A stretch of DNA of 64,000 bases from Nemertoderma westbladi. Lineage: Eukaryota > Animalia > Xenacoelomorpha. Location: positions 52,846-116,845 of the forward strand of contig JAUCBJ010007248.1 in the NCBI GenBank assembly GCA_032718475.1, in the 5' to 3' direction. Shown piece after piece: positions 8,527-32,614 of this stretch (positions are counted from its first letter, which is position 1; each line of letters begins with the position of its first letter). Under the pieces are notes generated by a model, which was not told the DNA's origin, did not search any database, and saw only the letters and a list, made by a program, of their open reading frames with translations. The position numbers were made by a program, and so were the translations under genes.

Positions 8527-8535
8527 CTCCCCCCC
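8527..8535 (-). promoter_or_regulatory. BEL-1 polypurine tract
   Basis: GGGGGGGAG on the minus strand abutting the 3' LTR. Confidence 0.85.
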
Positions 8536-9298: not shown

Positions 9299-10237
9299 TC
9301 ATTTCCTGGTCACTGCCGCTCCTCTGGTCTTGTCTGCTTTCTGGCTTCTGACTCTCGCCGCCACCTCCTTACTGATCCCAGTCGTCGACTCCTTGGGTGC
9401 CGGTGTTATTAGCTCCCGGTATCGCTTCGCGGGTGGCCCCTCCGAGTGGTCCTGTTGTCTCCCCCTGATGGCGTCCCATAGGATCATCTTCATTGCCCGC
9501 GGCACATGCTCTGCCAAGAAATCCCTAAACTCTCCTCTACTCTGTGGCGTCCACCTATCCAAATACCTCTGCATATTTTATCACTCCGGCATATGATGCC
9601 GCGTTGCCACTTCCTGGTAGGTAAACGGAAGCCTCCGTTTGATAATCTCCATGTGAGCCTCCTGATTGATGTTAAAGAAGCCCCACCGGAACTCCTGGGC
9701 CTAAATATGTTGCCGAGTCATCGCCCCGACGTTGGCCCATTCCTCGAAGACCCTAAACTTCTCTTCGTCGTCCATCCAGTCGCACTGGCGTCCGTAATGT
9801 CCCCGAAAGTTACACTTTGAACATCGGTTATGCAACCATGGACACGCCCCCATCCTGTGGCTCGACTCGCGGCAATAGAGACAACTAGTCCCTTTCTGGA
9901 ACCGGTATAAACAGCTCCTTTCCTGATGGGTCTGTCTCCCACAGTAATCACAGCTGACCACCAATGTCTCCCGCCCCACATCGTCTTTCGTCCCAAGCGA
10001 TCTCCACGGTCTGTGGAGTCGCTGGTAAGCGAACTTCCGGACGTTAGCGTCCCTATCTACGTCGATCTCCTCGCCCCTCTCGGGCATCGTCTCCCCGAAT
10101 ACTACCCGTGGTGCCGTCCCCGGTTGCTCGCCCAACCTAATGGTGCTCCCCGCGAAATCCATCGCCGGCTCCTCGTGCACCCAGGCCCGCTTGCCGGGTC
10201 TATCCCAGAAAGCCCTTGCCCCACTGGCCGTCACCAC
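9299..10237 (-). pseudogene. BEL-1 accessory ORF with three CCHC-type zinc knuckles, interrupted by in-frame stops
   Basis: CDYCGRQTHQERSC, CLYCRESSHRMGAC, CSKCNFRGHYGRQC; ORFs 9701-10237 and 9299-9574 share a frame, separated by three stops. Confidence 0.7.
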
Positions 10238-11208
10238 CTAGGCTCCCCTAACCTCCTTAGCGGCTGGTCCCCCTCGGCGCCCGCTGGTATGGGCGTCGCC
10301 TGCAATCCCGACGTCGACTGTTTCGGTGACCCCACCGTCCATCCCAGTTCTCGCCCTAGAGACTCCCCCGAACTCCCTGATGAAGTCCAACGAAGTTCAT
10401 CCAAGCCCGCCTGTTCCTCGAAGCCGTAGCTCTGTGCCCTAGCTTCCTCCTCCCTTTCTTCTGCTTCTCTCCTCTCCCGTCTGGCGACTTCTTCCAGCCG
10501 CTTCGCCTCTCGCCTATCCGTCTCTAGCTGCTCCCATCTCTGACACGGCGTATCCACCTCCCTGTCTACCAGATGTCGGCTGTTATAGTACACCGACTCG
10601 CCCTTCAGCCCCGGGTGGTCTACCAGACCCCCGAAAGCCGTCTTAAAGGCTCTTCTGTAGCTTAGGGGTGATCCCGATAATAGGAATGCCGTTGGTTCCC
10701 TCTCGATAATCACGGTCATGAATAGGTTAAGCAAACCTATCATTATCCAGTCCTCCTGTAGGATATATCGCTTCTGATATACCTTTATAGCTCCTCTCTG
10801 GAATTGATACACCTCTTGTCTCCCTGGCCTCGCTCCCCACTTCAGCGAGTTCGCCAAGTCTGCTCTGTACTCCTCTCTGAACTTGCCCCAGTCCATCGGT
10901 TTGTGACACACGAGCCACATTAACTGGCCCATCGCCACTGCCCCGCAATGTCCTGTGTTCTCTACTAGTCCCAATCCGTCCGGCGCTGTCATAGCCATGT
11001 AGACCGTCTGCGTATCCAGAAGGTTGGGGGTGTCCGGACCGATGATCCTCTCCGCGTCGTCGCAAATCACCGATCCCACTTTCGTCGTCGACTTCTCTCT
11101 CACTAGTGCTTGCACCGCCTTTGGCAGCCGGTTTAACTTCGGCCCATCCTTCTTTCCATACGTTCCTAGATCGGTACTGCGTACCCTCTTACTAACCTCT
11201 AACTCCAC
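10231..11208 (-). CDS. BEL-1 accessory ORF of unknown function with a C-terminal charged coiled coil
   Basis: 325-aa ORF downstream of integrase, overlapping the zinc-knuckle ORF by 7 nt; no obvious signal peptide or env-like C-terminal anchor. Confidence 0.65.
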   Translation of the reverse strand: MELEVSKRVRSTDLGTYGKKDGPKLNRLPKAVQALVREKSTTKVGSVICDDAERIIGPDTPNLLDTQTVYMAMTAPDGLGLVENTGHCGAVAMGQLMWLVCHKPMDWGKFREEYRADLANSLKWGARPGRQEVYQFQRGAIKVYQKRYILQEDWIMIGLLNLFMTVIIEREPTAFLLSGSPLSYRRAFKTAFGGLVDHPGLKGESVYYNSRHLVDREVDTPCQRWEQLETDRREAKRLEEVARRERREAEEREEEARAQSYGFEEQAGLDELRWTSSGSSGESLGRELGWTVGSPKQSTSGLQATPIPAGAEGDQPLRRLGEPRW

Positions 11209-11560
11209 TAACTAACTAATTGGTACTACGTACCCTCTTACTAACCTCTAACTCCATTAACTAACTAATCGGTACTACGTACCCTCTTACTAACCTCTAA
11301 CTCCATTAACTAACTAATGGTACTACGTACCCTCTTACTAACCTCTAACTCCATTAACTAACTAACGGTACTACGTACCCTCTTACCAACCTCTAACTTC
11401 TCTCCAACTAACTAACGGTACTACGTACCCTGTTACTAAACTCCAACTTCTGCCTACTGACGGTACTACGTACCCTCTTACTAACTAACTTCTGCCTACT
11501 GACGGTACTACGTACCCTCTTACTAACTTACTTCTGCCTACTGACGGCACTACGTACCTA
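11172..11560. repeat. Tandem minisatellite, ~41-49 bp unit, about 9 copies
   Basis: GGTACTACGTACCCTCTTACTAACCTCTAACTCC... at 11173, 11222, 11271, 11319, 11367 and onward. Confidence 0.9.
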
Positions 11561-11703
11561 TTATGTACTTATTCTAAGACTTTCTCTTCTTATTATTTTT
11601 ATTTTATTTTTATATTTATTATGTGGGAAGGGCGTCTCGCCCTCAATCCCACCCCCCTCAGTCCAAAACTTGGACGACTAAACTCCACTAAAATCACACT
11701 AGT

Positions 11704-13227
11704 TCAAGGTGCCCCCTCTAGTAGACAGCATTTTCCTACAGCCCTCATGTAGGTCTTTCTGTCTTCCGCACCTATCTTTCCACCTATTCGCACTTCTACC
11801 GATCGGACTCTTCCGTCCTCATAGGAGTAAGTGCCCACAACTCTCGCCAATCGCCATTGGTTGTTGATGATGGTATCATCTGTGACGATCACCAGATCAC
11901 CCTCCTTTAGCTCTCTGTTCGTGTTCCTCCACTTACTTCTTCTGTGAAGTGTGGGCAGATATTCCTCGACCCACCTCCTCTAGTACTCCGCGCTTATTGC
12001 CTTAGCAACTTTCCAATTCTGGCGGGAGTGTATGTCGTCTGGGTCTACACCCCGCATGTCGACTGTCGCCGGCCTCTCCATTAGAAAGTGACTGGGCATC
12101 AGCACGTCTAATGACTCAGGGTCATCATTCTCTGGATATAGCGGTCTGCTATTGATGATACCCTCACACTTTGCCAGTACTGTCCTTAGTACGTCCTCTG
12201 TAACCATGTGGGTGTTCATCAGCTTCGTGATCAGACGTTTCGAACTACCCACTAATCTCTCGACGCATCCTAGGGTATGCGGAGCATACGGCGTCCTCCT
12301 CTCCCACTTTACTTGTCGCCTTCTCATGGCCGCCCTGACTTCCTCCCCTTCCAGGATATCCAAGGCCTCTGCCATCTCGTTCTCCGCCCCCACAAAGTTG
12401 GTCCCGCTGTCAGAATACAGTACTGCGATTGTCCCACCTTTGCGGTCTCTAAATCTTTCTAAAGCATTAATGAATGCTGATGCGGTTGCATCTTGGGCGA
12501 GTTCTATTCCTACCGCCCGCGTGTTGTTACAAACGAAGATGATACCGTAGCATTTCTCCGTGTGTCGCATCACCTTAATCTTTATCGGCCCGAACATATC
12601 CACACCGCAATGCGTAAATGGCGGGTCGTGCTGTCTTACTCTACTGGCCGGTAGTTGCGCCATTTCCTGTATGGCCCGTTCCTTCTTCGCCCGTCAGCAG
12701 CTCTGGCACTGCCCCACTACCGCCTTTACCTTCTTCCTCAACTGTTTGACCCAAAAGGTCCTTCTTATCTCCGTGAGGGTTCGGTTGGTGCCCCCTTGCA
12801 ATATCGATTTGTGGGTGTCCCGGATAATCTGGTGGACTATCGGCGATCCTGTGGGAATGATGATGGGCTTCGGTGGTACAACGATACTGTTGTTGTATCC
12901 CACCCTAGAGTTCATTACTAGGATCCCGTCGTCATTAAGTTGTGGTGACAGCGTGATCAGCTCGCTGTCCCGCCGGAGATGCTGTTGCTTACCGATGCGT
13001 TCCACCTCGTCGCCGTAGTTCTTCCTCTGCTCGTAGCGGATGACTGCTTTGGCCGCTCCTTCCAGGTCTATTGTCGTTCTAATCTTCACGTCTTTACCAA
13101 CTCCCCTGAGGAACTTTCCGAAGGCTCTCCAGTATGCCACTAACTTCTTGCTCTTGTACCAACTAGAACTGTAGCTAAGGAGTTTATCCGTCGGGTTATC
13201 GCACAGTTCTCCTGGTTTTGGTTGCAC
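11704..13227 (-). pseudogene. BEL-1 integrase (disrupted)
   Basis: H...GG...CQSC zinc region, GVDMFGP, YSDSGTNF, ERLV, INSRPL, W.LARV...DGRVR, RAVGKCCLLE; frameshift at ~12690 and stop at 11980. Confidence 0.9.
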
Positions 13228-13261
13228 GTCCCTTATCTCCCTCCAGAAATCTGAATCAGAA

Positions 13262-13876
13262 TCAGAGATTCTGGGAGTATATCTCCTCTCCCTCTGAATC
13301 TCCCTCTTCTCCTTCTGACACTACTTCTCCTGAGCCCGGGACCCGGGCCCGGGACCGGGACTTTCTCATCGGCGGCCAGGCCTCCCTATCGCTCAGAAAC
13401 TGTGGCCCGTGTTGCCACAATACTTCCTTCTTCAAGAAAGTGTGGCGTACCACGCCCCTCGATAACAAGTCCGCTGGGTTCTCGTCCGTTGGGCAGTAGT
13501 GCCACCTTTCCAGTTCTGTGGTCGCCCTTATTTCGTCCACTCTATTCGCGACGAATATAGGGTATCTCGTCCTTTCGTTGTGTAGCCAACCGAGCACTAC
13601 CATGGAATCCGTCCAGTAGTGTGTTTCCACTATGTTGGGAATAGCGTCCACTAAGTAGGCTGTGGCCCTAACTCCTAATCTCGCAGCTGTCAACTCGAGT
13701 TTCGGAACTGATGCTGAGTCTGGTGGCGTCGACTTCGCTTTACTGAATGCGAGTCTGGGCTTGTGAGCCCCCTCTCGTTGTACTAAGTAGAGTGCCGCCC
13801 CATATGCCTCTAATGACGCATCGGAGAACATATGTAGATCCAGATTCGTCGATGTCCCCATCCGGGAAATATACAC
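13262..13876 (-). pseudogene. BEL-1 RNase H
   Basis: FSDAS..AYGA, PKLEL, WTDS, FVANRV, NPADLLSRG; frameshifted relative to RT. Confidence 0.9.
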
Positions 13877-15158
13877 GCGGCATGCTGTATGTTCCCATCT
13901 GCTCTAAACTCTCTGTCCACTTGTTCCACTGCTTACTAATCTCTTCTGGGACCTCTGCGTCCCACTCGTCCTTTAATTTGTATACTCTCTTGAGTATCTG
14001 TTTCCCCGTGACTAGTAATGGGGATGCTAGGCCTAGGGGATCGTATATCCTCGCTATATATGACACATAGCCCCTCTTTGTGTGGATACCTGCTCCCTCC
14101 TGACTCAATTGGTATTTTAACTCGTCTGTCTCTCTGTTCCACACGATTCCCAGTGCCTTCTGTTGAGACTCTATCCTCTTGTTCGCCATGTCCTGCCCCT
14201 TGGCTGTTGTGGGATTATCCATGGTCGATCCTGGTCTCTCGTCTTTTATTGCCTCGATAAATTCCTTCGAACTGGATTGGAATTTGGTTAGGTTGAAGCC
14301 GGATCCTTTAAGGATGTCGCGAACCTCGCGCCCTGTGTCCAGTAGCTCCTTAACCGTATTTCCAGACTCCATCCCGTCGTCTACGTAGAAGCCGCGTCGA
14401 ATCATATCGACGGCTTTGGCGCTGAACTTATCTTCCTTCCCTGCTACCGTATCTCTTACGGCCATAGTCGTTGTAAACGAAGACGACTTGGCTCCCATAT
14501 TCTGTACTACCATCTTATACATTGGTATGGTCGACGGTTCCTCATCGCCGTCGTACCATAGGAAGCGTTGGCTGTCGCTATCCTCTCCCGTTACACGGAC
14601 TTGGTTGAACATGCCTTCGATGTCGCAGGTGAAAGCGTGTTTGCCATTCCTGAATCTGAGTAGGACCTCGATCCCTGAGTTGTAGATGTTGGGACCCTCC
14701 AGCAGATAATCGTTTAGGCATTTCCCGTTGGTCTTGGCTGATGCGTCAACTACCATCCGCAGTTTACCTTTCTTCGGGTCTATAGCCACGTGGAGTGGCA
14801 GGTAATAGGTCCTGTCCGTGTTTGGCTCGTCGACCGGTAACTCCATGGCCCATCCTTTCTCGACATACTTTCTAATTGTCTTGTGGATGTACTCATTCTT
14901 CTCGGGGCTCCGTTTTAACGTCTGCTTTAACTTGCGAAGCCTCGTAAGTACCATCCCTTTGTTGTCGGGTAACGGTAGCTTTGGTAGCTTCCATACCATC
15001 CCTATGGTATACCGCCCCTCATCGCATGTCATCGATTCCTTTACACTTTGTAAAGCCTGCTTGTCTTCTACCGAGGTTCCGACCCCGGTCTCCTTTAATC
15101 CCTCAAAATCCTGCCTGAGCAGTCTCCTGAGCTGCTCCTCTGCTCCCTCATCCTCCAT
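13740..15158 (-). CDS. BEL-1 reverse transcriptase segment
   Basis: YYLPLH, KLRMVVDAS, LNDYLLEGP, DIEGMFNQV, FYVDD, YDPLGL. Confidence 0.92.
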   Translation of the reverse strand: MEDEGAEEQLRRLLRQDFEGLKETGVGTSVEDKQALQSVKESMTCDEGRYTIGMVWKLPKLPLPDNKGMVLTRLRKLKQTLKRSPEKNEYIHKTIRKYVEKGWAMELPVDEPNTDRTYYLPLHVAIDPKKGKLRMVVDASAKTNGKCLNDYLLEGPNIYNSGIEVLLRFRNGKHAFTCDIEGMFNQVRVTGEDSDSQRFLWYDGDEEPSTIPMYKMVVQNMGAKSSSFTTTMAVRDTVAGKEDKFSAKAVDMIRRGFYVDDGMESGNTVKELLDTGREVRDILKGSGFNLTKFQSSSKEFIEAIKDERPGSTMDNPTTAKGQDMANKRIESQQKALGIVWNRETDELKYQLSQEGAGIHTKRGYVSYIARIYDPLGLASPLLVTGKQILKRVYKLKDEWDAEVPEEISKQWNKWTESLEQMGTYSMPRVYFPDGDIDESGSTYVLRCVIRGIWGGTLLSTTRGGSQAQTRIQ

Positions 15159-15161
15159 CTC

Positions 15162-17144
15162 TCACATAGTTCCCGCGAACATGCATCCTGATGTCTCCGA
15201 CATCCTAAATGGTATCTTACTCTTGATTGGGCCACTCAGTGTCCACCCGAATGGTGTCAATATCGCCACCGGGTCACATTGCCTGTCTTCGCCGAAGACC
15301 ATTTGCATTCTCTCGTGGGCCGTTGGGCAGTCCATTCCTACTATGATGGATACCTTCCTAACGTCCACCTCTGGGATTGAGAAGTCGATACTGTCCAGGA
15401 ATCTGTATTGTTCGACCTCGATGTTGGTTGGCCGCCTGGCGTTAATATTTATCGACTCTATCACCTGGATGGGGTCGATGGTCGCCCCATAATCGCATCC
15501 CGGTGCTACCGCTGCTATCGCGCACCGTCCGGTTCTCATCTCCAGAACCTCATCTTTGCTGGAGATGGTTGTTACCGCCATTCTACTTGGCCTCGTTCTC
15601 AATCCTATCTCTTCGGCCACCCAATCCTCAACTAAGGTGAAGGCTGCACCACTGTCGACCAGCATCAGTGTGGTTACTGATCGGTTGCCTTCGCCGATTA
15701 TCCTTACTGGTACTACCCCTAATAGTACCGTCCCTCTCTTCTTTGCTACTACGGTGCTTGTTGCCATTGTTTGTCCTTTACTCTGACCGAACTTAATTGG
15801 CGTTTCTCTGCATTGTCTAGCTCTGTGTCCACTCATCACGCATCGCGAGCAGATGTCATTTCTCGCCGCGTATTCTACCTGATCTTCCCTGGGTAGCGCC
15901 TGCCAGTACCTGCAGTTCATGGTCTGATGAAGCGCATTTGAATGTAGCTGGCATTTGCTCTTTGGATCGTAGCCATCCTTATACAGTGCATTGCGTATCG
16001 CAGATGCATTTGTACCAAAGTCCTTACTGTTCTTATTGTTTGAATTCTGCCTACTGGGCGTACTGGGGGTATGTTTGTTTGTGTTGTTATTTTTCCCCTG
16101 TCCGCTCCATGATGTCGTCTTACCCTCGGCTACCTGTGGACTTGCAGTCCCCTGCGTCGCTGCGTATGGCAGTGATTGCCTGAGCTTTGGTAATGCGTTT
16201 GACGTGTTATGTTCTGGTTTCGGCCTGTGGTAATCGGTCTTTGATCCCTTTCCCACGCTATCCTTGCTGTAGACTGGGTCCGTTATAAGTTCAGCTTCAT
16301 AGTTTAAGAAGCTTGACATCTCTTCTAAACCCGGTTCCGCACCCTTCCTATCTCGAGTGGAGAAAGCGATTTTCCTCCACTTATTGCGCAGCCACATCGG
16401 AAGTGCCTGGGCTATCGTTGTGATGTTGTTGGACGCGTTGAGTTCGTATGGCGCATCCAATGTCTTTAGCACTATTAGCGCCTTCTCGACTTTGTTAGCG
16501 AATGTCTTTATGCTAACGGGGTTATCCTGTAGGCCACCCGATGTTATACCTCTCAGGGTCTGCCGGATGATCTTGGCCAGGTGCCTGTATTACCTGTCTA
16601 ACGCCCGCCATGCCGTCGTGAAGCCACCCTCGATACCCTGGTATTGCCTCACGATGTCGTATGCTGGGCCCCCTGTATATACTTGCAGATACTTTAGGCA
16701 CTCCGCCTGCGTCAAATTTTTCGTTAATATTTCGTTACTATACATGCGCCGAAACTGTAGGTATTCTTCCGGCCTACTCCCATCGAATTTGAATGGTTCC
16801 ACGGGTGGTAACTCGATCCTTGTTTTTAGTGCATCGATTAACGTGGCCATCCCCACCGCTTGCGCTTCCAATGGGTTCGATGGGTGCTGCATAGGTTCTC
16901 CCGTTGGGTGCGGTCCGTACGTCTTGTTTGCCGCTTTCCTCTGACTTGGATATATCATAGGGGGTAGCGGCCCCCTCCATATTTCTGTGTCGCATGATCT
17001 ATTCTCGTCCAAGGGGTTCGATGTTCTTACTCCTACTGGGGTATATTGTTGATATTGTGATGAGGGAATGTCACCCTGTCCCCCCCCCCCCCCACTGGTA
17101 TATTTGGTACTGGGGTTGATGTTAATATATTGGAGCCCATGCAT
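15162..17144 (-). pseudogene. BEL-1 Gag C-terminal part and aspartic protease
   Basis: KFDGSRPEEY Gag motif, knuckles CQLH...H...C and CSRC...GH...C, protease LVDSGA, TPFGWTLSG; in-frame stops at 16590 and 15162. Confidence 0.88.
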
Positions 17145-20010
17145 CTATCCGCAATAATCCCCCCTTCCCCTGGGTATATGTTATGTCCTTGCATGCTGTA
17201 GTCATACTGCTGTGCTGGTACCGGTATAGGCCTATCTACTTCTGGCCTCCTTGCCGGTATATACTCCGCGACTTCCGGGTTTAATCCCGCTGTTCGCGCT
17301 ATCCTATCGCCTATATTATCTCTCTCAGCATAGCCTATGGTATGTGCAGTAAGGCCTACAGTATGTCCTGCAGTCTGTATGTGTCGCTCGGGATCGAAGT
17401 TTATCCTTCTCGAATAATCCTCCCCGCGGCCACCGCATTCTCGATCGGTAGGTATATCCCGTCGGGAAGCTTCTCTTCGACCCCCTCTACTGCTCTCGCT
17501 CTCGTGCCGGTACATCCCGTACCCCTCTCTCTGCGCGCAATACGCCTCGTCAGGTCGCGCTCCTCCGGGGCGACGGCAATCTCCCGAAGTTCGACCCTGC
17601 TGACTCTCCGTCTCCACCTCTACTACCGACGGCTCGCTATCCGTCCTCGCTCTCCTGTCGTTCGCGGCGACACTTCTTCTACTCTCTTCCCTTCTTCTCT
17701 CTGTAGTGCAGTATTCCCGCTCGTGAGATCTCTCGTCGACCTCCCGGTTAAACTCCACTGTTCTTCTTCCCTCTTCTGATCGGGCTCGACGCTTCGTCCG
17801 CCCTCTCGCGACGTCAACCTGTCTCTCTCTGCTCGATTGCACGCCGCTGGGGATACTCGCAATCCCCCTATCACTCTCCGTCGCCGGGTGTTGCGGTTTA
17901 CCTGTCTCGGCCCGCGCATTATCCGTCGACGCTTGCGGGGCACTCTCTGCCCCCCCCCCCCCACCCCCCCTTTCGCCGCTAACTCGCTGTTGTGGGGATC
18001 CTGTAGCCCCCCCCCCCCCCCCCCCCCACTCGCCACATCTAACTTCACTATCTCTCACCCCGCTACTATATCCCTCACTAGCCGACACATCAACCCTACT
18101 GCGGCTGGGTCTATTCACCCCCGCCTGTCCCTCTGCTATTGTGTGGCCTACCAGGCCCTCTGCTTTCTGCCTACTAACTACGTGGCCTACCAGGCCCTCG
18201 CTGGGTTTACTCAACCCAACCACTCCCTGCCTAATAACTACATGGCCTACCAGGCCCTCTCCGGGTTGGCTCAACCCCGCCACTTCCAGCCCACTAACTA
18301 AGTGGCCTACCAGGCCCTCTTCGGGTTGGCTCAACCCCGCAACTTTCTGCCTACCAACTGTACGGCCTACCAGGCCCTCGTCTGCCGGGTTATACACATC
18401 CGACACATTCACGTTAATAGCACCACTAATATTGTCATTGGTTAGATCAATTAAATCCTCTAACTCGATAAAGTTACCTTGTGCACCCAAATTAGAAACG
18501 GGATTATTTTGCTCGTTCGAAATAAGATTATTTGAATTATTTTGTAAATTCAGACTTATATTTAAATTATTTGAATTATTTTGTAAATTCGGACTTAGAT
18601 TTAAATTATTTGAATTATTTTCTACATTAATATTAGAATCACTAGGATTTAAATTACTACTGTCGGGCAAAATATTATTTCCTGCAATGAAAGTTTGATT
18701 AGAATTATCTAGTACTGTACTATTAATATTAACGTTGTCTACTGTATCATTATTATTACCCCCCCTGCCCGTACGGTTACACCAGTCTCGGGTCTGTCGT
18801 GCGGTCCCTGTAAGTGGGGTATTAATAAATGTTTCTTCGACCCTCGGCTCCTCGAAAGCACTCGAGCCAGCGTCACTCTCTGACAGCCCCATCTGGGCCA
18901 TTTTTAGTCTGCGCTTCTGCTTGGTTTGGTACTGAATGAGTCCCCCTAGGCGGGCATGTAAACCATCCCGCACACGCTTCCCCTCTGCTGCTCTCTCCCG
19001 ACTCTCCCGCGCGCTCTGCTCGGCCAAATCCCTCGCTCTCTCAACTCTCTCCATTCGTTTCGCCTCCCTTGCCACCTCACGCTCTTTAAGTTCTGCCTCG
19101 CTCTCTTTTCGTTCAGCCTCGCGCTCTTTGCGTTCACACTCCTCTCTCGCCTCACGCTCTTCTCGTTTCTTCCTCCCTATTTCCTCACACTCCCTAAAGC
19201 TTCTTGCGGCTTTCTCGGCCCTCTCTCCGGTCTCTCTAGCCAGTTCCATTTCTTTCTCTAATAGCACTCTCCCCTCCTCTAACTGTCTCTCTACTTCTCT
19301 CTGGTCTTACGCTATCAGATTGAGATAACACGCCGCATTTATTCCCCTCACCCGTGTTTCTTTTACGGAGGATGTAGCAGACTTATCGGTTGTGACGGAT
19401 TCCCTCCGCCTTCCCGTCCTACTAACCCCCCCCCCCTTTTTCCGGAACCTTTTCCGACCGACGAGACCGAATCCTCGGGGTTAACCTCGGATTCGCCCTC
19501 CTGCGGTTTCCTCCAACCCACTAATTGTATTCCCCAGGCATCGACTAAGTATGGCCCTACGTACACTACGCTAGGTTCCATACCCCTACATTCCAATAGT
19601 TCAAACAGTTCGGTGGCAACCCCTCTCGCTCTCTCGCTGGCTAGTTCTCCCTGCCCAAAACGTTTTAGATAGTCAAAGTGTTCGTTCGACTCACCTAGTC
19701 TTTTCTTTAGGTTTACCTCGTCTATCTGGGCCCCCTCTTTGGCCTCCTTAAGTAGTTTCCGGGTCGCGTTGTAGGCCTGCCAAAGTCGATCGCTGACCCC
19801 GATGTCCTCGTCGCCGACATCCCCTCTATCTCTCCGGGTCCGGCGTCGTGCCGGCAGCCCCACCGTTGCCGTTCCGGTGGGCCGTCCGTCGCCCTCGGCC
19901 TGTGGCTGGCCGGCGACACTGGCACGTCGACCGCCGTCGTGTGTCGACTCGTCTCTCTCTCCTCCCGACTCGTCCTCCAGTTGTAGACGGCTCCCCTCAC
20001 GTTGGATCAC
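17033..20010 (-). pseudogene. BEL-1 very long low-complexity Gag N-terminal region
   Basis: ORFs 19363-20010 and 17033-19267 with coiled coil, Asn-rich tract and 54-bp GLVGH repeats; breaks fall at poly-C runs. Confidence 0.7.
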
Positions 20011-20134
20011 CGGGTCACCCGTTGGCGATGGGTCCGGTGTCGTGGGCCTATACCGTCGTGTCGCGGCCTCGCGGATTGTTAGATCGCCATCCGGGGTCCG
20101 CGTCCGGTGTCGTCTCTCCTATTCGGCTCATCGT

Positions 20135-20167
20135 AGCGTAGTCAGGCAGTAGTCGCTTTCTAGTTAC
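20135..20167 (-). promoter_or_regulatory. BEL-1 non-tRNA primer-binding site, complementary to its own LTR
   Basis: Sense GTAACTAGA directly after the LTR; its complement lies at 20385-20393, with further bulged pairing to 20400-20417. Confidence 0.7.
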
Positions 20168-20749
20168 TGTGACAGGATCTGCGGAGGATCCCGGTTTATC
20201 CGGTTTTTGGTTTCTAGTCTACGCGTCCCCACCATGTGTGAAAGATATAAAGAGTTCTGGGTTATTGATCGATCGATGTATATAAGTTCGGGATATAATA
20301 TAATAGAGATAATAGCACAAAATGGTTGATGTATGATGTAATGTACCGGTAGGTGATATCTTCTGGTGACGGTAGGCGGAGACGGTAACTAGAGTTCCGC
20401 TACTGTCCTAACTAGCTGACTTACTACAAGTGAATGAAATATTGCATGGACCGGTAATATATTGCACAGTTGGCCATATTGCTCTACCCAGTCGATGCTT
20501 CCCCCCTATTGGCTAATATCCTAATTGTCGCCCCTTCACCTTCCCTGGAGTGTTTCCCGTTGCTCCTGTTATTCTCTCTCTCTCTCAGGGGTGTAACCCC
20601 TGACCCCTTTGTGCGTATGTCCTCTGGGGTTTCCTTGTCCACACTTTATTGGGGTGGTACGAGGTTGATATTGGATATCGACCTCGTGTTCCCAATATTG
20701 CTTAAAGCTCACTTTATGGGGCTGGTTAGCGGAATTGAATACGCTAACA
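20168..20749 (-). repeat. BEL-1 5' LTR (582 bp)
   Basis: Direct repeat of 7944-8526. Confidence 0.95.
20431..20463 (-). promoter_or_regulatory. Putative TATA plus initiator of the BEL-1 LTR (TSS ~20435)
   Basis: Sense ATATATTA about 27 nt upstream of TCATTC, which matches the TCAKTY initiator. Confidence 0.45.
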
Positions 20750-22112
20750 GAAACATACAACCCTAATAAACCCGAAGCTCATTTATATAATTTAGATTTC
20801 AACAGTTTATATAGCGGTTCTTTGTCGGAGCAACTTCCTTATTCAGACTTTGAATGGTTGGACGTTGATAGTGTCGATATCATGAGTCTGGAAATTGAAG
20901 ATATATACGGATATTTCGCCGTAGTAGACCTCGGATACCCAACGACTATTCATGATGCCACATCCGAGCTTCCATTTGCACCGGAGCATGTTAAACTCGA
21001 TAGTAGGTATCTCAGTCCATACATGAAAAGACTTTGGCGGCATTATAATGGTGATAAAATTTTCAATAGCCCAGCAAAAAAATTGATGTTAACCCAATTC
21101 TATAAGTATGAGTACGGTGTACATCTAAAATTATTGCGCTTTTATATTCATGATGGAATGCGCTTGATTAAAGTTCATAAACTTACTAGATTTAAGCAAG
21201 GTTACATTTTTAAGGATTTTATTGAATATAACACCCAGCAAAGAAAAATAGCAAGCAATGAGTTTTATGATAAGTTTCACAAAGGAACAAATAACGCGCT
21301 TTTCGGGAAAAGCATGGAGAATATACAGGGCCGTGTCTCATTTCGCTTATGTAATTCAATCGAGAAATGTGACTTATTATTATCCAAGCCAAACCACGAA
21401 AATTTAATTATGTTCAATGATTCATTATCAGGTCACGTCCTATCTAAAACCGCGGTTTGTTTGGAAAAACCTATTTTTTTAGGCAATGCTGTGTTGGACT
21501 TGTCAAAGTTAGATTACTACCCTTTTTTCTACAATAAGTTAAAGCCCATGGAAGCCGAATTAAATTGTAAAATACATTTGTTAGGTGGAGACACCGATTC
21601 ATTTTTTCTACAGTGTGTTGGTTTATCCCAGCACCAATTTTTATCTGCGTTACAATCAAAAAAAGTTTTAGACTGTTCAAATTATCCTATTACACATCCG
21701 CTGTATACAGTAGAATAGAAAGGGAAATATAGATATTTAAAGGATGAAGGGAAGTCTAACCCGTTTGAACAGGTTATTTTACTCAGACCAAAATGTTATA
21801 GCTTTCGTGGGGGGTCAGTTCCAAAACGTGTCGCTAAAGGCGTAGGAAAAATGGTTATAAAAAAGAAACTCTCCCACGACTCATATTTAAAAGTATATAA
21901 TGAGGTTAGCGAGCATTACGAATACATTCAAAGGTTTCAATCGAATTTACATAAAGTCTACACTGTTTCACAAAAAAAAATCGCTAACACTCTGGGAAGA
22001 TAAATGATACTACATATCAACTACTGAAAGCCTACCTTACGGTCATTATAAAACACATTTGGATCGCAAAGCGCCAGCTCCAAAGCTTTATATGCCACCC
22101 ATTGTAGAATAG
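20750..22112 (+). pseudogene. Protein-primed DNA polymerase B, C-terminal part
   Basis: LDFNSLYSG, LPFAPE, KGTNNALFGKSMEN, GGDTDS, KDE, LRPKCYS, AKGV, EDK*...SLPYGHYK; stops at 21718 and ~22005. Confidence 0.93.
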
Positions 22113-22388: not shown

Positions 22389-23399
22389 TCCTACTAATAT
22401 AATAGCTCAAAAGTACTGCGACGACTACTACTACTACTACTACTACTACTCCAAGTTGCTAAATTGGTAATATCTCCCTGTTATTTCTAATTCACAATGC
22501 TAATCAAAGGTCAAGCACATTATTATGATTGTTGAGTTGGAAATCAATTGCTAATACAGTAGTGTAACAAGAGTTGTTTCCATAATCACCAGCTGTTAAT
22601 AAACGGATTATTACCATTCATTGAAGGATAACAATGCCAATCAAAGGTCAACCACAATTTCTCAAACCAATTGCTTATTAGTTTTGTTTCCAATCCCCAG
22701 TAAACGAATTGCATTGCCATTCAAGTATCATCAGTAAGAATATAGGTAGGTCACTCACTGTAAACTAAATTTGTACTGTATATTTGTCGCAACAGAACAA
22801 GTACGAAATTCTGTATAAATTATGTTTTTTTGAGAAGCCGTTCTGAAATATAATTTATTTTTACTTTATAATAAAACGGAAGCTGAAACTTTTAGCATTG
22901 GATTTATCTCCCGAACACGCAAATCTCCTTCACGGATAACAGGATTATGAACCGTGATCAAGGTAAGATATTGAATGTATATTATTGAATGTATATGTAT
23001 ATATTATATATGTAATATTAAATTTTTTGAATCGTTACACAGTACGTCTATTATTATTTTTATGTATCGTTATCCAGAGTACGGTATTACCATAGGCAAA
23101 ATAATTTTTTGTTCTTTTTCATGCTTGCTCCATCAGAGGCATTATTTGATCCATTAAAATAGTTAACGAAATTAAACATTTAATTATAGATACAACCCTA
23201 ATAATATTTTGATGCAGATAGAGTGAGAAGGTGCAGTAGGTGCGGCTGTCACACTAAAGGACACCCATTACTGCTTGGAGAGAAGTGTGTTCAGATTGTG
23301 AACCAATCGGAATTGGATAAGCGGCGGGTAAATAATGGTGATGCAAAGAAAAGGTATCAAACCGCTGACAGACAAAGAAAAAATCAGAGTGATGCAGTT

Positions 23400-23850
23400 G
23401 CTGCTAGAAACAGAAGCGCGAAACCTTCTGCAATGGCTGCTGCCAGAGTGAGAAATGCAAAACCTTCTGCAATGGCTGCTGCCAGAGTGAGAAATGCAAA
23501 ACCTTCAGCAAAGGCTGCTGCTAGAGTGAGGAATGCAGAACCTTCAGCAAAGGCTGCTGCTAGAGAGAGGAATGCAGAACCTTCAGCAAAGGCTGCTGCT
23601 AGAGAGAGGAATGCAGAACCTTCAGCAAAGGCTGTTGCTAGAGAGAGGAATGCAGAACCTTCAGCAAAGGCTGCTGCTAGAGAGAGGAATGCAGAACCTT
23701 CAGCAAAGGCTGCTGCTAGAGAGAGGAATGCAGAACCTTCAGCAAAGGCTGCTGCTAGAGAGAGGAATGCAGAACCTTCAGCAAGGCTGCTGCTAGAGAG
23801 AGGAATGCAGAACCTTCAGCAAAGGCTGCTGCTAGAGAGACGAATGCAGT
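23400..23850 (+). repeat. 39-bp coding tandem repeat (ARERNAEPSAKAA), about 11 copies, in the Helitron N-terminal ORF 23223-23852
   Basis: GCTGCTAGAGAGAGGAATGCAGAACCTTCAGCAAAGGCT repeated. Confidence 0.92.
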
Positions 23851-23899
23851 AAATCCAGTCCAAGCAGTAAATGCAGAGACTTCAGGTCATGGACGCACA

Positions 23900-24760
23900 A
23901 AACAATTCATTCTCAATTCTCCTGGTGGATATGGAAAAACATTCACATTCACCGTTATTGGTGCCAAGATCAGGGCTGAGGGAGGAATTGTACTCATGGT
24001 GGCCAGCACAGGTTTGGCTGCTCAAAATCTGGAAGGGGGAAGGACGGCACATAGCCGTTTCAAAATTCCAATTAACATAATGGAAGACTCCACATGCAAC
24101 ATCAAGGCCCAGAGCGATCTAGCAACGCTGATCAGGGCATGTTACTCATCATCTGGGACGAGATTTTCAGTGTGCATCGGTTTATTATTGAGTGTGTGGA
24201 AAGGAGTCTGCGGGACATTATGGATTGTGATGAACCGTGGGGTGGAAAGGTGGTTTGTCTTGGCGGCAACCCCAGGCAGACTCCGCCGGTGGTTAAGAGG
24301 GGTGGTCGACCACAGATAGTTCGATCATGTGTACAAATGTCTCATCTCTACCCTTGCATGAAGGAGCACAGGCTAACACAAAATATGCGAACTGATCCTG
24401 GTGAGTTGGAATTCTCCAGTTACATTCTCAAGTTGGGGGAAGGGCGTGAAAAGACATATGAAGAGGAGGGCAAGAACAAGATCAAAATACCATTAAATCA
24501 CCTTACTACATCAGTGAAGGATTCGATCAACCTTACATTCCCAGACTTGGAGTATGGCTGTCACGGATCAGACAATATAATCAATGGCGCTATATATACT
24601 CCATTAAACAAGAATGTCAAGGAAATCAACGATCAATGCATCAGCAAATTTCCTGGTGAATTAAAGCAATATCTGTCTGCCGATTCTATTCTTGAAGACA
24701 ACCATAAAGATACTCTTCCTTCAGAATTCATCAATTCGCTCACTCCCTCTGGCCTTCCTG
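23900..24760 (+). pseudogene. Helitron PIF1-type helicase fragment (frameshifted)
   Basis: PGGYGKTF, VASTGLAA..LEGGRTAHSRFKIP, LIIWDE, PWGGKVVCLGG..RQ.PPVV, LTQNMR, YLSAD, SLTPSGLP. Confidence 0.9.
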
Positions 24761-24991
24761 TCAACCCATTAGGGCAAACTGTTTATCAACCCACGAAGAC
24801 GAACTCAACACACCACACCAAGGCGCTGAGGCTCAGTCTATACCTCAGTAGCATACCGCGCAAAACCATTTACACGCCTTGTTTTAAGTTTATTAGGTTA
24901 AACATTTCCGATCATTGGGGCAACTGTTTATCGGTCCATGAACGTGAACTCTTGGTATATAGTATTAATATATTAATAATGATATATAACG

Positions 24992-25444
24992 ATGAAAAAT
25001 AGCGATATTAGCCCTGGAAATTTTAAGAAATTGTATCTAGTTTCTACTTTATTATCGGATACTTATAATAAGAAAAGCAATAATATAATACAACCGCTAG
25101 ATGGTGTGGTAATTTCATCTCAGAAAGCCAAACGGTTGTTAAGTTATTTAATGCGATTCTCGCGTGACAGAGTATGGTGGAGCGATAATAATAAACTCTA
25201 TATAGAAAATAAACTTATACCCGGAGCGAATATCAGTCATTTGATTGAATTGTTGGTTGCTAAAAAAAATAAGAAAAACACTGAAATAATTCCAGGACAA
25301 ACAACATTTGTGGGGCTATTAAAACGCTTAAGGATACCGAAACGATTAATTGGTCGCGGTTGGTTGAAACGGCGTAGGGTTCACGTAAGCCCCCCCAATG
25401 CAAAACGTGTTGACGTGTGGAAACAATACGTGGGACTACAATAA
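24992..25444 (+). CDS. Conserved uncharacterised Polinton/Maverick-type protein
   Basis: KAKRLL...W...KL..ENKLIPGANISHLI...PG..TF...L..LRIP..LIG pattern, recalled from invertebrate Polinton ORFs. Confidence 0.55.
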   Translation: MKNSDISPGNFKKLYLVSTLLSDTYNKKSNNIIQPLDGVVISSQKAKRLLSYLMRFSRDRVWWSDNNKLYIENKLIPGANISHLIELLVAKKNKKNTEIIPGQTTFVGLLKRLRIPKRLIGRGWLKRRRVHVSPPNAKRVDVWKQYVGLQ

Positions 25445-25809
25445 ATCGACGTGTGGAAACAATATGTTACATCATTAAACATTACATCATGATGTCATGA
25501 TGATAATCATTACATCATTAGTTACTTCATCATTCATATAACATTATATATTTTAGGCAGTTATTTTTTTGCCCTAGGCCTATATTTTTTACTTTTTTTG
25601 CCCTCTATTTTTACTCAAATGCCCTATATTTTTTTTCTAATACTTTTATGCCCTATATAGTGTAAGTACTTTTCTGCCCTATATTTTTTGGACTAGCAAA
25701 ACTGTTATACTCGACTTTCAGACTGTTGCTTTTTTTTTTGTTTAACATCATGACGTTACATCATGATGAAGGACTACATTAAAATATTATGTTTTTTGAA
25801 CGTTTCATA

Positions 25810-26662
25810 TTAAAAGCATGTCTAATAATAAAGCAAGTGGATTAGATGAAATCCCAGCGGAGGTATGGAAAACCGGAGTGCTAAATAGACCATTATTGAA
25901 TGTTTTCAACCGGATGTTAACAGGGGAAAAGCCACCACCAATTTGGACTAAAGGTCAACTAAAGCCTCTCCCCAAGAAAGGAGACCTCGGCATACCAACG
26001 AACTATCGTGGGATCTGTCTGCTTGTGGTAGCTGCCAAAATATACAATAAAATGATTCTATATAGGATTAGGCCTCACATAGAGAAACTACTGCGTAAGA
26101 GCCAAAACGGATTTCGACCAAGTAGATCAACAATAGCTCAGATACTTGCACTACGGAGACTGATTGAAGGAATTAAGTCAAAGAATCTCCCCGCAGTCAT
26201 GACTTTTGTGTACTTCAAGAAGGCATTCGACTCCATCCATAGAGGTAAAATGCTTGAAATCCTAAGAGCTTATGGAATACCAGAAGTAATTGTTGATGGC
26301 ATTGGATTGTTATATTGTGACACAGAAGCGCAGGTACTCTCACCAGATGGTGAAACTGAGTTTTTCTCAATCCTGGCTGGCGTACTGCAAGGTGACACAT
26401 TAGCACCATTACTATTTGTAATTGTGCTGGATTACGCAATGAGGATGGCCACAAAGGGTGAAGATCTGGGATTCACACTTCAAGAGCGCAGAAGTAGTAG
26501 ATATCCGGCAACTACAGTCACAGACACCGACTTTGCGGATGACATCGCCCTGCTCTCTAATAAGCTAGCAGATGCACAGCTTCTACTAAATAAAGTGGAG
26601 AGGGCTGCTAAGGAGGTTGGATTGCATATAAATGCTACCAAGACCGAATTCATGACCTTTAA
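25810..26662 (+). pseudogene. RTE-clade LINE reverse transcriptase, 5' part (continues at 42993)
   Basis: KASGLDEIPAE, PKKGDL..NYRGI, QNGFR, FKKAFDS, GVLQGDTLAP, FADDI; cut at TTAA 26659-26662. Confidence 0.92.
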
Positions 26663-28225
26663 CCATATTAGTACCGGGCTATAAAATGTTGTACAAATAC
26701 CGGGGGGGGGGGGGGGTCATATTGACCCACCCCTCTAAAATCTACAAATTTTTACGAAAACGTCTGATTTTTTGTTTGTACGTAGGTATCACTAGTCAGG
26801 ATCCGACCGAAAAAGAAAATTTTCGAAAAAATGTACTGGGGTGGTTATATTGCAGCACCAAAATTACAAGTAGTGCACAATTTTCAGAAAATTTGAAAGT
26901 TACATTTTTCGTCTAATTGTATTTCAATACAGGTTTTCTGGGGCGCAAAATACATTGGAAAATATTTAAAAATGATATGATTACTATAAATGGCTGTTTA
27001 GACCTCTCTACGTAGGAAAAAAATGAAAAAAACAAGTAACCAGCACTTTTCAGTTAGAACACAAAATTTTTAATTCACTTATACGATGCTATAAATTCAC
27101 ATTTTCAGGTTTTCTAGGGCGCTGATTCTAATGGAATACATTTCTAAAATGCCCCATCATTGCTACTTGTATTTTTCGGCGTAATTTGGTAAATTTTGGT
27201 GCTAGGACCAAATTTCGTACCCATCACCAAAAAGTACAAGTTTGCGATGTCCAGTGCTGTTTTTATTGATTCCATCGGATTCAGGACCCTCATAAACCCG
27301 TATAACGCAATAAACAAGATGATACTATCTACTGATCAATTTGCTTATTTTCCAAAATTTGGTGCTGGCACAACAATTTTCACCCACCGGCGAAAAATAC
27401 AATGTTTGAAAACTCTTATGAAATTTTTACTGATTCCATTGAATTCAGAACACTCACAATCCCGTATAACGCAAGAAACAAGGTGACACAATCAATTTAT
27501 ATATTTGATGGTTTTCAAAATTTGGTGCTAGCACCACATTTTGCACCCACTTCCGAAAAATTCAAGTTTGTGATGCCTAGTTCGAAAATTATATATTCCA
27601 TTCAATTCAGAATAGCCATAAACCTCTAAAACGCAAGAAATAAATTGCCACAAACAAGTTTATCAATTGAATGGATTTTCAAAATTTCGTGCTAGCACCA
27701 AAATTTGCACCCACCACCGAAAAATACAAGTTTGATACGCTTGGTGCAACTCGTATATATTTCATCGAAACCAGAACCCCAAAAAACCCCAATTGCGTAA
27801 AAAACAAGTTTCACGCAATCAATTTACAAAATTGACATATTTCAAAATTTGGTGCTGGCACCAAAAATTGGCACCCGCCGAAAAAAACAAGTTTGAAATT
27901 TCTAAATCAATTTATATGAATTCCATCCAATTTCTAACACCAAAAAACCGGTGTAAATCAAAAATAGAGATGTTACAATTCATATTTAATGAAATGTAAT
28001 TTTCAAAAAACGTCTCAAAAAAAGTGCCAAAAGTAGGGTTAAAAAATGGTGCTATAACTCGAAAACTACCCAATATTTTTGAAAACGGTTTTCACTACTA
28101 GGAAGACAATAGATTTTTAGGAAAAGTCATAAAATTTCAGATTCCCAACTGCGTTTGTTTCAGAATTATAATAAAAAAACCACGGTGGGGGTCATATTGA
28201 CCCCTTCCCCCCGGGTTTAATAGGG
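26663..28225 (+). mobile_element. piggyBac-like non-autonomous element (MITE-A copy 1)
   Basis: TTAA on both sides; imperfect TIR CCATATTAGTACCGGG / CCCGGGTTTAATAGGG; subterminal GGGTCATATTGACCC palindromes; internal ~130-bp repeats. Confidence 0.85.
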
Positions 28226-30300
28226 TTAAATAACAAAATTCTACAAGAAGATATACAGATATATAAATAGAAAAAATAAACATCTCATACTTAATAATAT
28301 GTAATATAAATTCTTACAGAAACTGTAAAATATATTTTAACGAATTTTAAACTAGGTTTTAGACTCCATAGATATTTTATTGGATATTTAAATAATTTGC
28401 ATTTGTTTTTCCTAACTACTCCTTGACCCTGCACTTACACATTTTATACTATACCTTCCTTATTCCCTAACAGCCTCTACCATCCCTGCTCTTACATTCC
28501 TAATAATATTCCTAATGGCGACTAAGATAAGATTGATATGTAAACTGGTCATCTTAACAACTCTATGTTATATCTCATTATTTATATTGACAAAGATCGA
28601 TGTAATAGTTAATTACAAAGATTCCTACCTTACAAAGAATTATAACAACAATGTAATATTTATTTACAATGAATCCTACCATTCACCAATCTCTAAATCT
28701 ACACTAACAAATGAGGGCCAATATTAAAATTTTGCGTTTCAAACTCGCTGCGCGGGAACTCGTCCAGCTCGAAAACTACTTAACTTACGGGAGATTTGTT
28801 TACACAGACTTATAGTGCGTTAAATTATCTATCTAACAGCGTTAATTACCGAAGCTATTATACAACTGGAGCGGCAGACGATCGTGTGAAATATAATATT
28901 TATAAAAAAGGGACGAAAAAATTTTTTCCTTTATAATTCGCTACTCTATTACAATTTAGCTTTTTGCGCCAAAACTTCCTGTAAAATGTAGAAAATAAAC
29001 TCCGCTGTCTTTTTTCTTAACATTTGTAATTAAAATTACGAATTTTAAGGGTCGAAAAATATCGCGTCATTTACACCCTTTTTTATTAATTTTTTTGGGG
29101 CCAAAAATGACCCCCTCTCAAAAGATAGAAAAAAAAAATTACGGCAAAGAATATACTAATTTTATTGAATTTGGACCATCAGAACCAAAGTTAGAGCGAT
29201 TTTAGTGAAAAAATAAAAATAATTTTTTTTTGCAAAAAATTAAGAATGGTCAATATTGGCTTTCGTACCCGCGAACTTAGGTTTCATTAACGTGATTGAT
29301 AACCACTAGACTACGTGACCAAGATAATTTGAAATTTTCGAGTGACTATTTTTAAACATCAATAACTTCCGTTCTATTGGGCCGTTTAATCTGAAACTTT
29401 TTTCATTGGATAGAGGATAGATTGTAGTGTGTGAAATAGGATACAACTTGGGAAAAGACTTAAGTGCACTTGGTGCAAAATGCACTTAAAAAGTGCACAT
29501 TTTTTCTATATTTCAAACACTATTATTTCCAATTCTATTCATCGTAGAATGTTTTTTATTGGGTTCAAATGTAGTTTGAAGTGATTTCTAACTATAATCG
29601 TAACATTTGTATAACTTTTTATGTCAATAAAGTGACTTAAATTAAATTAAATTAGTACCGGGCTATAAAATGTTGTACAAATACCGGGGGGGGGGGGGGG
29701 GGTCATATTCACCCCCCCCCCCCCCCCCCCCCCCCTCTAAAATCTACAAATTTTTACGAAAACGTCTGATTTTTTGTTTGTGCGTAGGTATCACTAGTCA
29801 GGATCCGACCGAAAAAGAAAATTTTCGAAAAAATGTACCGGGGTGGTTATATTGCAGCACAAAAATTACAAGTAGTGCACAATTTTCAGAAAATTTGAAA
29901 GTTACATTTTTCGTCTAATTGTATTTCAATACAGGTTTTCTGGGGCGCAAAATACATTGGAAAATATTTAAAAATGATATGATTACTATAAATGGCTGTT
30001 TAGACCTCTCTACGTAGGAAAAAAATGAAAAAAACAAGTAACCAGCACTTTTCAGTTAGAACACAAAATTTTTAATTCACTTATACGATGCTATAAATTC
30101 ACATTTTCAGGTTTTCTAGGGCGCTGATTCTAATGGAATACATTTCTAAAATGCCCCATCATTGCTACTTGTATTTTTCGGCGTAATTTGGCAAATTTTG
30201 GTGCTAGGACCAAATTTCGTATCCATCACCAAAAAGTACACGTTTGCGATGTCCAGTGCTGTTTTTATTGATTCCATCGGATTCAGGACCCTCATAAACC

Positions 30301-31485
30301 TGTTCGCGCTTTTGAAGACCTTTAGCAGTTTAACCTGCCAAAATTTATATGTCTTTTAGTTAATTAACACACCTTTAGCATACGACAATATTTTATGCTA
30401 ATAAACAAAACATTAGCCGAAGCCAGCCCATGCGCGATCATTCACCCGATGGATCTACACCCGGGAGGCTGAATTCGGATGCTTAGATTTTATTATTGCA
30501 GTGTAAGGTTGCAGTGTAAGCCTACTGTATTATTCGATTGATCGCTAATATGTAATTTCTGACAGATATTATTAACTTTCGGGAAATATTAACAGTTCCT
30601 TTAGGACGTGGCGCTCTATCTATTTAAACAGAGCTAGGACTTATACTAAACGCAACGATAAGGCTTATGATTAAAGTATAAGTCGCATTCTTTAGGAAAT
30701 GCTTTGTTACCAGTCACATCACACTCACAATCATGCACACTATTCTGCCGACCGTCAGTATATTTGATCACACATAAAGAGAACAGCAATTGACTCAGGT
30801 AGTGTCTACTAAATAACATTAGATTCAATACACACCACATTGATATAAATCGCAATTGTTATATATAGCCCGCCTCTCTAACCTGTAGTGTATCAAGAAA
30901 ATTGGGAATTTTGGGTGATTTATCCGTATTCTCCAAAGAGCAATATTTCCATCAACAAATAGATACAATTAATAACTGACGGTAAATAGCAGTACAAACA
31001 ATATGATTAGTGCAGTTAAATTAAGTGAGGTAACACCGCCGGTAACAGTTATACTTTCTATAATCTAAGCAGTTTTTGCTAGAGTTGTTCCAAAAGCCGG
31101 TGTTATGGCGAAAAATGGGAACACAACAACAGAAACATGTGACTACTGCTCTATACGAAGATACCAACTCCCTTATTCCACGAAGCTCCCGTTCAACACA
31201 GAGGATGAGCATAGAGATAGGAAATTCAGTTCAGTAGCGCTGGGATAGGTCGAAATCAACGCCTACGCAAATTCTATTGGCCGACACGGACAGCAAGGCT
31301 TAGGCAACCTCTCTAGGCTAGTTGGCCGATTAAACTGAGCCCAGATATCTCCGTACAGCACATCAGCCAATAAGCTGGTAGCTTGCACTATTTTAGTTAT
31401 AAATCCCTTTGAGAGTATTCTAGCGACTGGGGGGGAACTGGCCAGCAAAGGCAAACGTATCAGTTATCCCACAAAAGCTTTTACA
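30301..31485 (-). repeat. BEL-2 3' LTR
   Basis: No difference from 40901-42085 seen by eye; preceded on the minus strand by a short purine-rich tract GGGAGCGG. Confidence 0.95.
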
Positions 31486-31563
31486 CCGCTCCCAGAAAAT
31501 GGGATTTGAGTCTATAAAATATACAAAATCACAGTTTCTAAAATATAAAAATACTCTAAACAG

Positions 31564-32280: not shown

Positions 32281-32614
32281 ATCGTGACTAAAAAGGGCAA
32301 TCGAAACTGGCGCGTCCCTTTAGTTGACAATGGTGACATTGAGTCATAAATTGAGGGCAAACCGCAAAAATGTGCAAATTATTAAATCTGCAATACGCGC
32401 AATAAATTTCCATCGCCGGTTGTTCGTGGAAATAGGAACAGCGGACGTTTGTGTCCATGGGCGTAACATGGTCTCTCGATGCGCATAACCGACAACGTTG
32501 CCGAGAAACATAGTTGGCATGGCGATAATCGTACGCAGTGAGACACTGTGGACCTTGATACCATTCTAGGATGTAATCGTTGTCGCTGTTCCGAGCGCGA
32601 TAGGCTGAATCTCC

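Follow-up and report, generated by a model that had tools for sequence, protein, structure and literature searches.

A BEL/Pao retrotransposon of Nemertoderma westbladi with a primer-binding site complementary to its own LTR: a candidate for self-priming

In the LTR retrotransposon Tf1, the RNA's first 11 bases pair with the primer-binding site (PBS), and RNase H cleavage occurs between bases 11 and 12, as described in PMC7175516. Priming of this type depends on the start site, according to PMC5341516. PMC6317226 describes self-priming for the Tf1/sushi and Tcn1 groups, which are Ty3/gypsy chromoviruses, and also reports a proposal, made from sequence alone, that the plant Ty1/copia TAR lineage (Houba, Osr-1) self-primes. 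The original prediction for the locus analyzed here named Tf1 and chromoviral Gypsy elements as known self-primers and missed the proposal for plant copia, by which the mechanism is not limited to chromoviruses.

The ICTV gives BEL/Pao elements (Belpaoviridae) a genome of 4.2–10 kb with an 18-nt PBS for the 3′ end of tRNA-Arg or tRNA-Gly (PMC8742986); the prediction, too, took these elements to be normally regarded as tRNA-primed. The same text calls their replication poorly understood (PMC8742986). The main text of three BEL/Pao surveys (PMC3118150, PMC554778, and PMC6238403) contains no PBS or tRNA passage. The prediction knew of no description of self-priming in BEL/Pao, and none was found in a literature search that had supplements, subscription papers, Repbase, and GyDB outside its scope. 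In a wider context, tRNA priming has been proposed to have arisen late in the evolution of LTR elements (PMC3601003).

The window, i.e. the whole stretch of 64,000 nucleotides of contig JAUCBJ010007248.1 that was analyzed, contains a 12.8-kb LTR retrotransposon on the minus strand (positions 20749–7944), termed BEL-1. Its LTRs are identical at 571 of 582 aligned bases, and the element is flanked by a 5-bp TSD. The main parts of BEL-1 are as follows.

20168–20749, minus strand: 5′ LTR, 582 bp, TGT...ACA
7944–8526, minus strand: 3′ LTR, 583 bp, TGT...ACA
20750–20754 and 7939–7943: TSD GTTTC, on both flanks
8527–8538, minus strand: polypurine tract (PPT), G-rich, adjoining the 3′ LTR
11980–20118, minus strand: broken gag-pol region

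The Pfam domains of BEL-1 follow the order DUF1759, aspartic protease, reverse transcriptase (RT) region with Peptidase_A17 (in two pieces), integrase H2C2, and rve. Peptidase_A17 scores above the cut-off in both pieces, and DUF1759 and rve score below it. Among the matches listed, all 102 of 102 BEL-1 homologues contain PF05380 or PF03564. By its proteins as well as its LTRs, TSD, and PPT, BEL-1 is a BEL/Pao element (Belpaoviridae), yet it departs from the priming described for this family. Membership in the Tf1/sushi group is ruled out, because the proteins are those of BEL/Pao and not of a Ty3/gypsy chromovirus. The coding region contains in-frame stops at 16590–92, 15162–64, and 12694–96 in addition to frame changes; therefore, this copy is dead, although full-length, and its mechanism is that of active sisters or of an ancestor.

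Several other features of BEL-1 and its surroundings were noted. The very start of the LTR carries a 7-bp inverted repeat (20725–20748, minus strand). The interval between pol and the 3′ LTR (9701–11570, minus strand) comprises arrays of 42–50-nt repeats at 11156–11570, a 326-amino acid ORF without a Pfam match or a usable Protein Atlas match, and an overlapping 178-amino acid ORF with zinc-knuckle-like Cys/His motifs and Protein Atlas leads of 0.88 at most. In the regions bordering BEL-1 (4265–8058 and 20669–21718, plus strand), matches to a dUTPase and a type-B DNA polymerase are placed on its left, which suggests that BEL-1 inserted into a Polinton-like element; the ORF on its right has no Pfam match. 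Elsewhere in the window, a 997-amino acid ORF at 58262–61255 (plus strand) combines a zinc knuckle, an aspartic protease, and an RT and is another retroelement, probably of the Ty3/gypsy type. The intervals 25800–26684 (plus strand), 44840–45787 (minus strand), and 43426–44397 (plus strand) contain two oppositely oriented RT ORFs that are 98% alike across 853 nt, as well as a DUF7047 ORF that adjoins one of the two. A 39-nt tandem array in an open frame is followed by a PIF1-like helicase ORF (23360–25002, plus strand). Finally, a dispersed repeat family (26726–28229, 42086–42996, 46754–48071, and 51269–52225) has members that are 93–99% alike, occur in both orientations, and contain internal units of about 162 nt; it is probably a non-autonomous DNA transposon.

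The features of the BEL-1 primer site and of the complementary LTR segment, with PBS positions counted from the LTR end, are listed below.

20159–20167, minus strand: PBS core (+1 to +9), adjoining the LTR end, without TGG
20153–20158, minus strand: leader side of the internal loop (+10 to +15), variable in sister copies
20135–20152, minus strand: distal leader arm (+16 to +33), complementary to 20400–20417
20385–20393, minus strand: predicted 3′ end of the self-primer, a perfect 9-nt complement of the PBS core; putative cut at 20385/20384 by analogy with Tf1
20394–20401, minus strand: LTR side of the loop, with a GG motif (20398–20397)
20400–20417, minus strand: LTR arm of the distal anchoring helix

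As originally predicted, no TGG follows the 5′ LTR of BEL-1, where the bases are those given before. The first TGG appears only at +79, so that the PBS is not one for the 3′ end of tRNA-Arg or tRNA-Gly in the sense of the ICTV description (18 nt). The claim that positions +1 to +9 are exactly complementary to 20393–20385 inside the LTR also holds, as a perfect 9-nt match, and so does the claim that pairing resumes past a loop: positions +16 to +33 pair with 20400–20417 through 17 pairs, including one G-U, with one bulge on each strand. BEL-1 thus features what characterizes the Tf1 type, namely a PBS at the LTR end that is complementary to its own LTR and has no TGG for a tRNA end. ARAGORN detected no tRNA genes in the 64-kb window and in 60 of 80 loci of relatives.

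Within BEL-1, the 9-mer complement of the PBS core is confined to the two LTRs. Shuffling the LTR 5000 times gave an anchored match of at least 9 nt in 6 cases, 15 of 11,615 internal positions gave one when taken as pseudo-PBS, and none of 240 control ACA sites reaches the anchored self-match of BEL-1. The 35-nt duplex has a predicted energy of −37.6 kcal/mol; one of 1000 shuffled PBSs attained this value, and none of 500 shuffled LTRs did. Of 332 segments of 35 nt taken from the interior, the PBS segment alone attains it (next best, −37.2). The distal helix has a z-score of −5.3. The anchored complementarity of BEL-1 is a real feature and exceeds chance.

Judged from these sequences, the BEL-1 family probably employs Tf1-like self-priming from its own RNA and not from a host tRNA. 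The genomic RNA would fold such that its 5′ part pairs with the PBS, and a cut, probably by the RT/RNase H of the element, would fall after 20385. The freed 3′ end at 20385 would then prime minus-strand synthesis into the terminal ACA of the LTR; because the base at 20385 would pair with the first base past the LTR, extension would copy this ACA immediately. After strand transfer, the 3′ LTR copy would serve to restore the sequence of the primer itself. For the start site, the cut, and the cutting enzyme, we infer these assignments by analogy with Tf1. Further LTR features that bear on this mechanism are the following.

20432–20437, minus strand: initiator-like TCATTC, candidate start 20435 by motif only
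20419–20424, minus strand: donor-like GTAAGT, a consensus splice donor, 11 nt after the candidate start and inside the predicted primer region
20375–20384, minus strand: 5′ arm of a predicted R-U5 stem of 10 bp that begins directly behind the predicted cut
20224–20233, minus strand: 3′ arm of the predicted R-U5 stem
20173–20193, minus strand: predicted 7-bp U5 hairpin, 5 nt before the LTR end
20645–20650, minus strand: sole canonical AATAAA of the BEL-1 LTR; it overlaps a CCAAT box and precedes the primer end by 266 nt

When the RNA was folded, the primer helix had a probability of 0.55–0.93 for RNA starts at 20417–20500 and of 0.00–0.03 for starts at 20395–20400. The latter values, obtained with starts at 20395 or 20400, argue against a primer of Tf1 size (∼11 nt) in BEL-1. 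In these predictions, the 9-bp core forms only with the 17-bp distal arm present. A primer would therefore measure 33 nt or more, or about 50 nt with a start at 20435, and the loss of the core without the arm offers a possible reason for the long arm of BEL-1. A competing fold accounts for about 0.2–0.45 of the ensemble for starts at 20435–20500. The pairing strand had been predicted to be the first ∼50 nt of the RNA, starting at ∼20435 behind a TATA/initiator pair. The fold favors such a long primer, since it needs a start at or upstream of 20417, and the exact start at 20435 would be a candidate position within that range. Of the promoter pair, the initiator-like TCATTC is present at 20437–20432, but no TATA[AT]A was found upstream. 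Use of the splice donor at 20424 would remove the primer arm of BEL-1.

Tf1-type self-priming involves supporting R-U5 and U5 stems around the cut. In BEL-1, a 10-bp R-U5 stem is predicted to begin at the first base after the cut; it was matched in 2 of 300 shuffles and has a pair probability of about 0.44. Such a stem reaches significance in one of eight relatives; in BEL-2, the second BEL element of the window (see below), it does not. At position 20174 of the U5 hairpin, the G-U pair is replaced by G-C in nearly all sister contigs and in the 3′ LTR of BEL-1.

The main difficulty for self-priming of BEL-1 is the upstream AATAAA. As a matter of logic, cutting and priming needs the poly(A) site to lie downstream of the cut; otherwise, R would not survive for strand transfer. 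If the upstream AATAAA is used, the primer site falls into U5, and the mechanism cannot work. Downstream of the BEL-1 primer site, GATAAA is the only poly(A)-type signal. A canonical poly(A) signal lies downstream of the primer site in BEL-2 and in five of eight relatives, and upstream of it in none of the eight.

Sister copies of BEL-1 were collected from four runs of the same organism (three studies), and all contigs were compared over the PBS/LTR region. PBS substitutions in the full table occur at +10, +14, and +30, all of which are unpaired in the model, and none occurs at +1 to +9 or +16 to +29; further changes are the loss of 2 nt from the loop and indels at the distal end. The probability of all three changes being at unpaired positions is P = 0.006, a value weakened by two of the three being CpG transitions, the BEL-1 helices containing no CpG except +30/+31. 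On the LTR side, for which 40 of 115 variant rows were considered, changes in predicted stems keep or add pairs: G-C becomes G-U at 20415, position 20376 of the R-U5 stem changes to U-G, and position 20174 of the U5 hairpin changes to G-C.

A diverged subfamily, clearest in run X5, differs from BEL-1 at two core positions of its PBS and reads AATCC at +8 to +12. In the dominant X5 LTR contig, changes at 20394 and 20396 place GGATT opposite the AATCC of the subfamily. From these sequences, the X5 subfamily appears to have changed both strands of the primer helix, its PBS and LTR contigs being linked by depth alone (65.5 and 125.3, the 1:2 ratio expected of leader to LTR). Single contigs from X2 and X5, read by eye, maintain the distal helix mostly via G-U/A-U exchanges, and beyond about +33, the sequence differs in a diverged sister contig. 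The complementarity in sister copies, which the original prediction made a point of comparison, is borne out insofar as contig variation avoids paired sites; the core itself is altered in the X5 subfamily, apparently with matching changes in the LTR.

The window contains a second element of this kind, BEL-2.

30301–42085, minus strand: BEL-2, with identical LTRs of 1185 bp (42085–40901 and 31485–30301) and TSD GGTTT
40889–40900, minus strand: BEL-2 PBS, without TGG in 100 nt
41642–41653, minus strand: perfect 12-nt complement of the BEL-2 PBS, inside the BEL-2 LTR

The 12-nt self-complement of BEL-2 was reached in 0 of 5000 shuffles and at 1 of 9389 internal positions. The PBS letters of BEL-1 and BEL-2 diverge after the fifth base, and their proteins share 20–35% identity. 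BEL-2 encodes a 1404-amino acid gag-protease with an RNase H-like tail at its end and no RT match, and its leader of about 2 kb includes a 287-nt tandem duplication. This element is very young and probably non-autonomous. Unexplained ORFs of BEL-2 at 31564–33028 take the same position as the extra ORFs of BEL-1.

For more distant relatives, we took the best 80 of 539 confirmed metagenome stretches from an RT alignment search. These relatives are 30–36% identical and form 62 families besides BEL-1 at 90%. In a quick tree with 63 rows, BEL-1 sits on a long branch of unsure placement, with at most 37% identity to the relatives. No relatives were found in viral_contigs. In 12 loci, the LTR end was fixed by two LTR copies, independent of the PBS. 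The eight that end in ACA were used, and L025, L027, L072, and L073, whose repeat does not end in ACA, were left out of the eight-family count.

All eight families with a fixed end lack TGG and possess an anchored self-complement of 10–15 nt at offsets of 0–4, and none of the control ACA sites of the same elements (96–135 each) reaches the match of its family. Six of the eight match only across a GT-AG junction in the LTR (L005, L020, L026, L064, L076, and L022); the first five of these feature a strong donor, a T-rich acceptor, and introns of 72–186 nt. Unspliced pairing occurs in L058 and in the 3′ LTR of L046. An additional row, the 5′ LTR of L051, missed with 7 nt. L046 has an intron acceptor in its 5′ LTR (145–326) and the exon–exon junction as DNA in its 3′ LTR (6694–7103); this intron-less 3′ LTR may reflect real intron loss or a chimeric contig. 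The PBS self-match has an offset of 0 in BEL-1, BEL-2, L020, L026, and L046, and begins 2–4 nt past ACA in L005, L022, L058, L064, and L076 (LTR ends 55, 214, 207, 57, and 1793, respectively), a difference that may be due to different end processing by integrase.

A wider, uncontrolled screen of 74 of the 80 loci, which took the best of many ACA sites, gave 22 loci with at least 10 through a junction. Three of them look like chance, and the remaining 19 represent 15 families. Many contigs in this screen are without an LTR, and TGG follows some ACA sites that are not fixed LTR ends; tRNA-primed families may be present among the rest of the loci. A GG just upstream of the primer helix is shared by BEL-1 and 13 of 16 relative loci (background 0.17), and in nine relative loci, it is located opposite a leader CC. 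A long distal helix at 0 of 500 shuffles was seen in 1 of 14 relatives.

The original prediction overlooked both that most relatives build their primer by splicing and that the only AATAAA lies upstream of the primer site. In BEL-1, no GT/GC-AG junction (46 donors × 43 acceptors) improves on the 9 nt of the unspliced match, the best one providing 8 pairs including one G-U. Moreover, the GG of BEL-1 at 20398–20397 is contiguous with the primer end, whereas the GG of the relatives is in exon 1. For both reasons, BEL-1 resembles a DNA version of the product that its relatives obtain by splicing. In the history that we infer, this primer is assembled across an LTR intron in the relatives, and BEL-1 looks intron-less, with a long anchoring arm. 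The opposite assumption, a primer of the BEL-1 family spliced from donor 20487 to the AG at 20389 with the long unspliced helix being secondary, we consider very improbable. This AG is positioned 4 nt before the primer end, as compared with 4–10 nt for the acceptors of the relatives, and a change at 20489 (about 60% of X1 depth) would convert the 8 pairs with one G-U of this junction into 8 Watson-Crick pairs. One sister PBS variant would, by eye, also gain 4 pairs past a bulge in the spliced form. However, this junction, like all others, is not superior to the unspliced 9 nt, its AG has no pyrimidine tract, and the GG motif does not reside in a separate exon. The X5 changes fit the unspliced segment, and splicing at the strong donor 20424 destroys the match.

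Two further explanations dispense with self-priming altogether. It is improbable that a host RNA, such as an internal tRNA fragment or another small RNA, serves as the primer, with the LTR-leader helix acting as a switch between a hidden and an exposed PBS. This explanation would agree with the ICTV description of Belpaoviridae as primed by tRNA-Arg/Gly (PMC8742986), with the half-tRNA primers without CCA reported for plant copia lineages in PMC6317226, with the GTNA-like start shared by the PBSs of these families, and with the upstream AATAAA, which would put the helix in U5. Yet, the PBS letters vary by family, and each LTR matches the PBS of its own family, in many cases only when joined across a splice junction that has a canonical donor; a single host RNA would not follow such family-specific changes. 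Equally unlikely is a complementarity that is structural or accidental (an inverted duplication of old date, or a structure used in packaging or translation) with no role in priming. Template switching can generate an inverted copy of 33 nt that is then inherited, the long arm is rare among relatives, and the BEL-1 copy is dead. Against this stand the start of the match at exactly +1 in BEL-1 and BEL-2 and at +1 to +5 in all eight fixed-end families, the lack of any other primer site in BEL-1, and the variation among sister copies, which spares paired positions, whereas a diverged contig differs beyond about +33.

Self-priming, as originally predicted, is supported by the covariation in sister copies, by BEL-2, and by all eight relative families; cleavage after GUUAC would be the step that releases the primer. 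A broader scenario, to which we assign an even chance, is that a broad animal branch of BEL/Pao dropped tRNA priming and that most of its families splice an LTR intron to build the self-primer. The BEL-1 lineage would be an intron-less offshoot, in which the short primer was replaced by a two-helix arm of 33–50 nt. Priming would then depend on start-site choice, and the donor at 20424 would act as a switch between priming-competent RNA and mRNA. If true, self-priming in BEL/Pao would mean that priming without a tRNA either originated one more time or is old and shared, which bears on the proposal of late tRNA priming (PMC3601003). It would also tie retrotransposon copying to start-site choice and, in the relatives, to host splicing. 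Tools that require a tRNA PBS will miss or misjudge such elements.

Compared with known systems, BEL-1 resembles Belpaoviridae (Semotivirus) in its LTR pair, 5-bp TSD, PPT, and the order gag(DUF1759)-PR-RT-Peptidase_A17-IN. In contrast to the description of this family, it has no TGG, measures 12.8 kb, and contains extra ORFs before the 3′ LTR. With the TAR lineage, BEL-1 shares self-priming that is predicted by sequence alone, outside Ty3/gypsy (PMC6317226); TAR elements, however, belong to the copia superfamily of plants, and the accessible part of the same source mentions no splice-built or long two-helix primer for them. The likeness to Tf1/Tf2 of Schizosaccharomyces pombe and to the Tf1/sushi and Tcn1 groups consists in a PBS that matches no tRNA and pairs with the R region of the element itself. 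Unlike Tf1, BEL-1 belongs to another superfamily, its primer would be no shorter than 33 nt (against 11 nt) and would form two helices with a loop between them, its cut and cutting enzyme are putative, and many of its relatives form the primer only after splicing. Self-priming in BEL-1 is most likely a known mechanism in a new form, in a family described as tRNA-primed.
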